DNA of 2,827 nucleotides from Enterobacteria phage CUS-3: the sequence record FN394998.1; one strand, given 5' to 3'. The notes beneath the pieces are model-generated. The model worked only from the letters and a program-made list of their open reading frames with translations, was not told the origin of the DNA and ran no database searches. Position numbers and translations under genes: made by a program. Shown here one piece after another: positions 1 through 1,762 of this stretch (position 1 is the first letter of the stretch; each line of letters begins with the position of its first letter).

Positions 1-543
1 ATGGCACGCCCAACAAAGTATCAAGAGGCGTATGCCGAACAGGCACGCAAACTGTGCTTGCTGGGCTACACCGATGCAGAACTTGCTGATTTCTTTGAAG
101 TCAGTGAGTCAACTATTAACAAGTGGAAGCTTGATTATCCTGAGTTTTCGGAGTCCATAAAAAAGGGTAAGGCCGTCGCTGATGCAGAAGTTAGTGATCG
201 TCTTTATCAACGCGCTATGGGCTTCGTGGCTCCAGATATCGATATTCGTGTTATTGAAAACAGAATTGTCGAAACTCCGCTTGAGAAGTATTACCCGCCT
301 GATACAACCGCTGCCATTTTCTGGCTTAAGAACCGACAGAAGGATAAATGGCGCGACAAGGTTGATCACGAGCTAACAGGCAAAGACGGCGGCGCAATTC
401 AGATTGAAACATCACCGATGAGCACTCTATTCGGAAAANNNNNNNNNNNNNNNNNNNNNNNNNNNNNNNNNNNNNNNNNNNNNNNNNNNNNNNNNNNNNN
501 NNNNNNNNNNNNNNNNNNNNNNNNNNNNNNNNNNNNNNTCTGA
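1..543 (+). CDS. Phage small terminase subunit (TerS-like, HTH DNA-binding); ORF spans masked bases 439-538, stop TGA at 541-543
   Basis: ATG at 1 and 180-aa ORF in the supplied track. N-terminal 'GYTDAELADFFEVSESTINKWKLDYPEFSESIKKGKAVADAEVSDRLYQRAMGF' followed by 'KYYPPDTTAAIFWLKNRQ' matches, from memory, the conserved layout of a widespread small-terminase family in Gram-negative prophages (HTH, then PEF, then YPPDT...WLKNR). Length of about 180 aa is typical. No search was run; 100 masked bases lie inside the ORF, so the C-terminal 35 aa and the exact stop are unverified. Confidence 0.6.
   Translation: MARPTKYQEAYAEQARKLCLLGYTDAELADFFEVSESTINKWKLDYPEFSESIKKGKAVADAEVSDRLYQRAMGFVAPDIDIRVIENRIVETPLEKYYPPDTTAAIFWLKNRQKDKWRDKVDHELTGKDGGAIQIETSPMSTLFGKXXXXXXXXXXXXXXXXXXXXXXXXXXXXXXXXXX
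64..126 (+). other. Predicted helix-turn-helix DNA-binding motif within the TerS-like protein (aa 22-42, GYTDAELADFFEVSESTINKW)
   Basis: Classic HTH pattern: a Gly turn start, a short first helix (TDAELADFF), the 'VS' turn and a recognition helix (ESTINKW) with an invariant Trp. Inferred from the sequence pattern only. Confidence 0.45.
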
Positions 544-1762
544 GCCATGTGTAAAATATTATGATGGCATTCTGTATCTGACGACCAGGGGGACATTAAG
601 TACTCAACCCGGTAGTTCATTGCACAGAAGCTCTGATTTAGGTACATCATGGAATTCTCTTCGCTTCCCAAATAATGTTCATCACTCAAACCTTCCTTTT
701 GCCAAAGTTGGCGATGAGCTGATTATTTTTGGCAGTGAGCGCGCATTTGGTGAGTGGGAAGGAGGAGAACCTGATAACCGTTATGCAGGAAACTATCCAA
801 GAACATTTATGACCAGAGTTAACGTCAATGAGTGGAGTCTGGATAATGTAGAGTGGGTTAATGTTACTGATCAGATTTATCAGGGCGGAATAGTTAACTC
901 TGCGGTTGGTGTTGGTTCAGTTTGTATCAAAGACAACTGGCTGTACTACATTTTCGGTGGGGAAGACTTTCTAAACCCATGGAGCATAGGGGATAACAAC
1001 AGAAAATATCCTTATGTTCACGATGGTCACNNNNNNNNNNNNNNNNNNNNNNNNNNNNNNNNNNNNNNNNNNNNNNNNNNNNNNNNNNNNNNNNNNNNNN
1101 NNNNNNNNNNNNNNNNNNNNNNNNNNNNNNNNNNNNNNNNNNNNNNNNNNNNNNNNNNNNNNNNNNNNNNNNNNNNNNNNNNNNNNNNNNNNNNNNNNNN
1201 NNNNNNNNNNNNNNNNNNNNNNNNNNNNNNNNNNNNNNNNNNNNNNNNNNNNNNNNNNNNNNNNNNNNNNNNNNNNNNNNNNNNNNNNNNNNNNNNNNNN
1301 NNNNNNNNNNNNNNNNNNNNNAGCGGCGGTGAAACAACGTCTTCAGCAGATGGTGCAATGATAACGTTGCATGGTTCCGGAAGCAGTACTCCACGTCGCG
1401 CGGTATATAACGCACTCGAACATCTTTTTGAGAACGGAGATGTTAAACCTTATCTTGATAATGTAAATGCTCTTGGTGGTCCGGGAAACAGGTTCTCGAT
1501 AGTTTATCTTGGCTCCAATCCTGTGGTTACCAGTGACGGAACATTAAAGACAGAGCCGGTCTCTCCTGACGAAACATTGCTGGATGCCTGGGGTGACGTC
1601 AGGTATATCGCTTATAAATGGCTGAACGCTGTCGCTATAAAGGGGGAAGAAGGGGCGAGGATACATCATGGTGTAATCGCGCAGCAACTTCGTGATGTTC
1701 TTATTTCTCACGGACTCATGGAAGAAGAAAGCACAACATGCCGCTATGCCTTTCTTTGCTAT
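539..1762 (+). CDS. Endosialidase-type tailspike (endo-N-acetylneuraminidase-like), partial; true start and stop are hidden in masked regions, internal 1031-1321 masked
   Basis: My own translation of the +2 phase (codons from 539): 'SEPCVKYYDGILYLTTRGTLSTQPGSSLHRSSDLGTSWNSLRFPNNVHHSNLPFAKVGDELIIFGSERAFGEWEGGEPDNRYAGNYPRTFMTRVNVNEWSLDNVEWVNVTDQIYQGGIVNSAVGVGSVCIKDNWLYYIFGGEDFLNPWSIGDNNRKYPYVHDGH', which contains a canonical Asp-box SSDLGTSW. After the mask (from 1322): '...NRFSIVYLGSNPVVTSDGTLKTEPVSPDETLLDAWGDVRYIAYKWLNAVAIKGEEGARIHHGVIAQQLRDVLISHGLMEEE...', which resembles the C-terminal intramolecular chaperone domain of endosialidases and related tail fibres. No stop occurs in this phase from 421 to 1762. 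It is absent from the ORF track only because no in-window stop exists. Confidence 0.8.
629..652 (+). other. Asp-box (bacterial neuraminidase repeat) S-x-D-x-G-x-T-W within the tailspike beta-propeller
   Basis: Codons agc tct gat tta ggt aca tca tgg encode SSDLGTSW, an exact match to the sialidase Asp-box consensus. Confidence 0.8.
1532..1762 (+). other. C-terminal intramolecular chaperone / autoproteolytic domain (peptidase S74-like) of the tailspike, N-terminal part; predicted self-cleavage just before Ser encoded at 1532-1534
   Basis: Motif V-V-T|S-D-G-T-L-K places Ser at position i and Lys at i+5, the spacing of the Ser/Lys catalytic dyad described for endosialidase C-terminal domains. 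The downstream 'GVIAQQL' stretch is typical of this domain. The remainder of the domain lies in masked 1763-2179. Confidence 0.65.

Follow-up and report, generated by a model that had tools for sequence, protein, structure and literature searches.

Among the closest described systems to the DNA considered here is the CUS-3 prophage of Escherichia coli K1, a P22-like Lederbergvirus that has been sequenced completely (CP000711). CUS-3, its endosialidase tailspike and its phase-variable neuO gene are already well described. The annotated gene order in CP000711 is canonical, running from terS through terL, portal, scaffold, coat, head completion, injection and mnt/ant to siaK1, the tailspike gene, and neuO. 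A canonical P22-like (Lederbergvirus) late-gene order is also annotated in the prophage of strain IMT5155. The role of the phase-variable AAGACTC tract of neuO has been described (PMC13001214).

Two other comparisons are useful. The small terminase subunit (TerS) can be set beside that of the Sf6 gp1 type, for which structures are available (PDB 3HEF and 4DZJ). The form of the record can be set beside composite GenBank/ENA entries of the MLST style, in which several partial genes are trimmed to whole codons, kept at equal length across isolates, numbered by genotype and separated by N.

Here we compare with these systems the window, by which we mean the whole stretch of 2,827 nucleotides analysed, one strand of the CUS-3 record FN394998.1. 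All four of its fragments map to CP000711 at 97.7–100% identity, in the same order and orientation. In CP000711, however, terS is separated from the siaK1 fragment by 18,254 bp with the usual genes for packaging, head, injection and the immunity region, and neuO has 19 copies of AAGACTC; the window has neither these genes nor the repeats. The window shares the features of an MLST-style composite listed above, and differs from such entries in that two of its three N runs keep the true spacing (291 and 417 bp), only the first being nominal. It is almost certainly a composite record of non-contiguous CUS-3 typing fragments, in which the junction between terS and the tailspike gene does not represent real DNA.

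Organisation of the record

The window consists of four blocks of real sequence separated by three runs of N, the first of which is exactly 100 long (Table 1). Each block comprises a whole number of codons, in the phase of its gene, with no internal stops.

Table 1. Features of the window, with positions counted from its first nucleotide.
Feature	Positions	Strand	Description
Fragment 1, TerS coding sequence	1..438	+	Complete 146 codons, cut one codon before the natural stop
Nominal spacer	439..538		100 N, standing for approximately 18–21 kb of prophage
Fragment 2, internal siaK1	539..1030	+	Codons 487–650 of 981, catalytic β-propeller
Out-of-frame TGA within siaK1 fragment	541..543	+	In window frame 1; siaK1 is read in frame 2
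N run, undeposited middle of siaK1	1031..1321		291 N, true to length
Fragment 3, siaK1 codons 748–894	1322..1762	+	Catalytic/stalk end and start of C-terminal chaperone
N run, 3' end of siaK1 and siaK1–neuO intergenic region	1763..2179		417 N, true to length
Fragment 4, neuO	2180..2827	+	5' heptanucleotide repeats edited out, stop codon trimmed

A megablast search of positions 1–1030 against phage records found 17 sibling GenBank entries, each 2827 bp long and each matching in two pieces over the region searched. All are named 'Enterobacteria phage CUS-3' and come from different E. coli K1 strains. The accession series is FN394986–FN395002 together with FN394218. The one number in it that no sibling has is FN394998, a place that the window probably fills. 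Four siblings were inspected. Their titles describe a partial proviral terminase gene, siaK1 and neuO, with a 'genotype GT_n', the genotypes including GT_10, GT_15 and GT_16. They have a common CDS layout: 1..>438 (terminase small subunit), <539..>1030 and <1322..>1762 (both endosialidase) and 2180..>2827 (K1 capsule O-acetyltransferase). The partial flags of these CDS coincide exactly with the borders of the N runs.

Counted over all 2827 positions, N included, 2 nt separate the window from FN394999 and 3 nt separate it from FN395000. A base-by-base check of these two entries and of FN394994 found N at 439–538, 1031–1321 and 1763–2179, as in the window. Since three public siblings have N at the same coordinates, the N are part of the deposited records and not a later mask. 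The sequence-only reading had supposed that the junction itself was hidden in a masked stretch at 439–538. This does not hold, because the siblings carry the same N and have CDS that are partial at the N borders.

These observations bear on the idea that the N runs arose in scaffolding, as the default gap of 100 N placed between contigs, or by masking of real sequence. A run of 100 N is the conventional gap of unknown size, and the window has three N runs, which speaks for such an origin. Against this, public entries that are stored independently have their N in identical places, and each fragment has its own partial-gene annotation in records whose titles also name partial genes. In addition, the codon trimming, and the removal of the neuO repeats described below, point to Sanger-type amplicon alleles that were concatenated manually. 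We therefore regard scaffolding or masking as very improbable.

The siblings also show different combinations of alleles. Fragments 1 and 2 of the window are identical to those of the GT_15 and GT_16 siblings (FN394999 and FN395000). Fragments 3 and 4 are identical to those of FN394993, which is only 99.0% identical to the window over positions 1–1030. Such a mixed combination suggests recombination or reassortment between CUS-3 prophage lineages.

The small terminase gene

The open reading frame (ORF) at 1–438 is identified as TerS by its match to PHROG 309 (E 2e-68). A Pfam scan of TerS gave no families at E ≤ 0.001. The last 38 residues (109–146) are nearly identical to the C-terminus of Sf6 gp1 and align with it end to end, whereas the N-terminal two thirds of the two proteins have no sequence alignment.

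TerS of P22-like phages is a mosaic. Judged from its sequence, the protein in the window also looks like a mosaic, with only residues 109–146 aligning to Sf6 gp1 and no Pfam family assigned.

From the shared C-terminus, TerS truly ends at position 438, the last base of codon 146 (436–438). The fragment maps to CP000711 from 22705 to 22268, inside the CDS 22265..22705 on the minus strand, at 97.7% identity. In CP000711 the base that matches position 438 is directly followed by TGA (...GGA AAA TGA CCT), and this natural stop codon overlaps the start of TerL in a 4-base ATGA.

At the DNA level, terS is 97% identical to a gene of Klebsiella phage phiKp_30 and 98% identical to a gene of Escherichia phage N7. 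Its identity to the RS218 CUS-3 reference, at only 97.7%, is lower than that of the neighbouring siaK1 fragment, at 100%.

The tailspike and neuO fragments

From position 539 onward, in frame, the window matches the Pfam family End_beta_propel (PF12217, E 1.6e-104) over positions 192–355 of the 367 in the profile. The propeller is thus encoded by 539, as the sequence-only reading had said. Its identifications, namely TerS, the endosialidase propeller and a CUS-3-like phage, are likewise correct. The window also contains the endosialidase stalk (PF12219, E 1.2e-32) and C-terminal chaperone (PF13884, E 1.4e-11) domains.

Fragment 2 corresponds to CP000711 from 4013 to 3522 at 100% identity. Fragment 3 maps from 3230 to 2790 at 99.8%, and has Pfam matches to End_tail_spike and Peptidase_S74. 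In both, the first base is in phase 0 and the last in phase 2. The number of N between them, 291, equals the number of base pairs separating them in CP000711, and the same is true in IMT5155.

The endosialidase fragments are 99.3–99.8% identical in DNA sequence to the tail fibre genes of vB_EcoP_ZX5 and vB_EcoP-720R6, phages of approximately 39.6 and 46 kb, and to two Phi05 records that have no annotation. In 2006 Stummeyer et al. reportedly described how K1 phages exchange the endosialidase module; the annotation of CP000711 cites PMID 16689790 for this paper. The presence of near-identical tail fibre genes fits with such exchange.

The last fragment, 2180–2827, encodes a hexapeptide acyltransferase (Pfam Hexapep). 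Positions 2183–2827 map to CP000711 from 2236 to 1592 at 99.5% identity, and the following codon in CP000711 is TAA, the natural stop. The preceding run of 417 N equals the 417 bp from CP000711 position 2790 to the neuO ATG at 2372. The window has no copies of AAGACTC, compared with 19 in CP000711. At its 5' end (2180–2215) the fragment reads ATG-TC-GTTTTCC, that is, ATG followed by TC and then the sequence that follows the repeats. The apparent N-terminus of NeuO, 'MSFSVDD', is therefore a construct and, because the repeat tract has been edited out, the ON/OFF state of neuO cannot be read from the window.

Taken together, the codon-whole fragments, the cutting of terS and neuO immediately before their stop codons and the removal of the neuO repeats indicate that these are hand-edited alleles.

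Distances in complete genomes

The sequence-only reading saw a non-canonical gene order, with the small terminase gene followed immediately by an internal part of a tailspike gene, and proposed that the flanks be aligned to a complete CUS-3 genome. When this is done, 18,254 bp are found to separate them in CP000711. Annotated in this interval are TerL, portal, scaffold, coat and the proteins for head completion and injection. It also includes some small genes, mnt, the antirepressor gene and the start of siaK1 (its first 1,458 nt, codons 1–486). The claim of an unusual gene order is not supported: no base has been sequenced across the 'junction', and terL follows terS in CP000711. By the sequence-only reading's own account, a full 5' tailspike part encoded elsewhere would refute it, and in CP000711 that part does lie elsewhere, downstream of both TerL and the entire structural module.

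The sibling FN394994 offers a direct comparison, as it derives from strain IMT5155, for which a finished chromosome is available. All four of its fragments are found on that chromosome at 100% identity. Where FN394994 has 100 N, the chromosome has 20,754 bp (between fragments at 516175 to 515738 and 494983 to 494492), holding TerL, portal, capsid and the other structural genes through to the antirepressor. Here also the 5' part of the tailspike gene lies elsewhere, and in this strain it is interrupted by an IS66 element.

IMT5155 is an APEC strain. In its genome (NZ_CP005930.1, 493496–498891) the IS66-family element, comprising tnpA/tnpB/tnpC, splits the tailspike gene after approximately the first 213 nt. 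The prophage retains an intact neuO acyltransferase gene, beside the integrase and tRNA-Arg. The IMT5155 CUS-3 prophage is probably unable to make functional virions.

A search was also made of 5,426 complete E. coli genomes, of which 688 have some match to window positions 1–1030. In none of the 5,426 do the terS and siaK1 segments occur at one place (within approximately 1 kb). Among the best 30 genomic matches to terS, all 30 abut a gene for the terminase large subunit.

The sequence-only reading listed, as one explanation, a true deletion of the structural module in a degenerate prophage or satellite-like remnant. Approximately 18 kb would have been lost, from TerL through tailspike codon 486, fusing terS to the middle of siaK1 while the genes for receptor degradation and capsule modification were retained. 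The juxtaposition in the window, taken by itself, could be read in this way, and degraded CUS-3 prophages do exist, an example being IMT5155, whose tailspike gene has an IS66 insertion in its 5' part. But positions 439–538 are N throughout, in the window as in FN394999, FN395000 and FN394994, leaving not one sequenced base across the junction, and the same 100-N layout is seen in the inspected siblings, which represent different strains and genotypes. In IMT5155 this layout corresponds to an intact interval of 20.7 kb, and the adjacency is absent from all of the complete E. coli genomes searched. Furthermore, the edges of the fragments fall at the end of a CDS and at codon boundaries, not at microhomologies. 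The short direct repeats that the sequence-only reading proposed to look for at the breakpoint are not present at these edges (GGAAAA/TGACCT, kept/lost, compared with AATGCA/TCTGAG), and the question of microhomology is in any case moot, because the fragment edges are trimming points. A deletion is thus unsupported, and its probability is close to nil. A recombinational mosaic, put forward in the same reading, is equally unsupported, there being no sequence across the 'junction'.

Reading frames across the N runs

It remains to account for the overlapping stop codon and open reading frame that made the junction look real. A TerS stop had been placed at 541–543, overlapping the tailspike frame. 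There is indeed a TGA in frame 1 at these positions, but it is only the first stop encountered past the 100 N, and it lies inside siaK1; TerS has already ended at 438. Similarly, the statement that the tailspike phase is open from 421 is literally correct but trivial: frame 2 has a TGA at 419–421, after which come 17 nt of terS read out of frame, followed by N. Frame 2 appears open upstream of 539 because N cannot encode a stop. For the same reason, six of the ORFs listed for the window, on both strands, extend through one or other of its three N runs.

The shift of frame, from 1 to 2, arises because 100 leaves a remainder of 1 when divided by 3. By contrast, 291 and 417 are both multiples of 3, and consequently siaK1 and neuO seem to form one continuous frame 2 through the N.

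Discussion

The layout of the record, the mapping of its fragments, the distances between them and the lack of adjacency in finished genomes are all direct observations, and we propose the following account of how the composite record came about. Pieces of three genes, four in all, were each sequenced separately, trimmed to whole codons, written one after another in the order of the phage late operon and joined with N. They comprise terS, two stretches from within siaK1, and neuO stripped of its repeats, and were meant for the genotyping of CUS-3 prophages in E. coli K1. The runs of 291 and 417 N reproduce the distances in the reference genome, with only the run of 100 N being nominal, for approximately 18–21 kb. 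In the prophage itself, TerS leads into TerL by way of the 4-base ATGA overlap, then into the P22-like structural module, and only after that to the tailspike. Both the 'overlapping stop' and the 'open frame' are products of translation through N.

The sequence-only reading had also listed an assembly or masking artefact among its explanations. This option is right in that the junction is an artefact, but the cause is neither mis-assembly nor masking: it lies in the construction of the record, which is a deliberate concatenation as deposited.

From the records themselves we infer both the typing scheme and the reason for choosing 100 N, and we further infer that the series derives from a typing study of neuO and CUS-3 that has been published. 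Judging by strain names and subject, this study is likely to be that of Mordhorst et al. 2009 (Environ Microbiol 11:3154; PMID 19671077), a reference given in PMC13001214.

The slight doubt that we retain concerns a coincidental real deletion in this strain, or some other technical origin of the spacer. In the first case, the source K1 strain would truly have lost TerL through the N-terminal half of the tailspike, with the loss hidden by the standard 100-N template; we give this virtually no credence. Were it true, the strain would carry a defective prophage that is retained for capsule O-acetylation mediated by neuO.

The TerS–tailspike junction is not a real feature of CUS-3. It matters only as a point of quality control, in that windows taken from composite records can look like a deletion, a gene fusion or an overlapping stop codon. 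Multi-locus typing entries are at risk, as are all records in which partial CDS are separated by N spacers. There are cheap flags by which such records can be recognised: gene fragments that are exact to the codon beside N runs, any run of exactly 100 N, and siblings of equal length.
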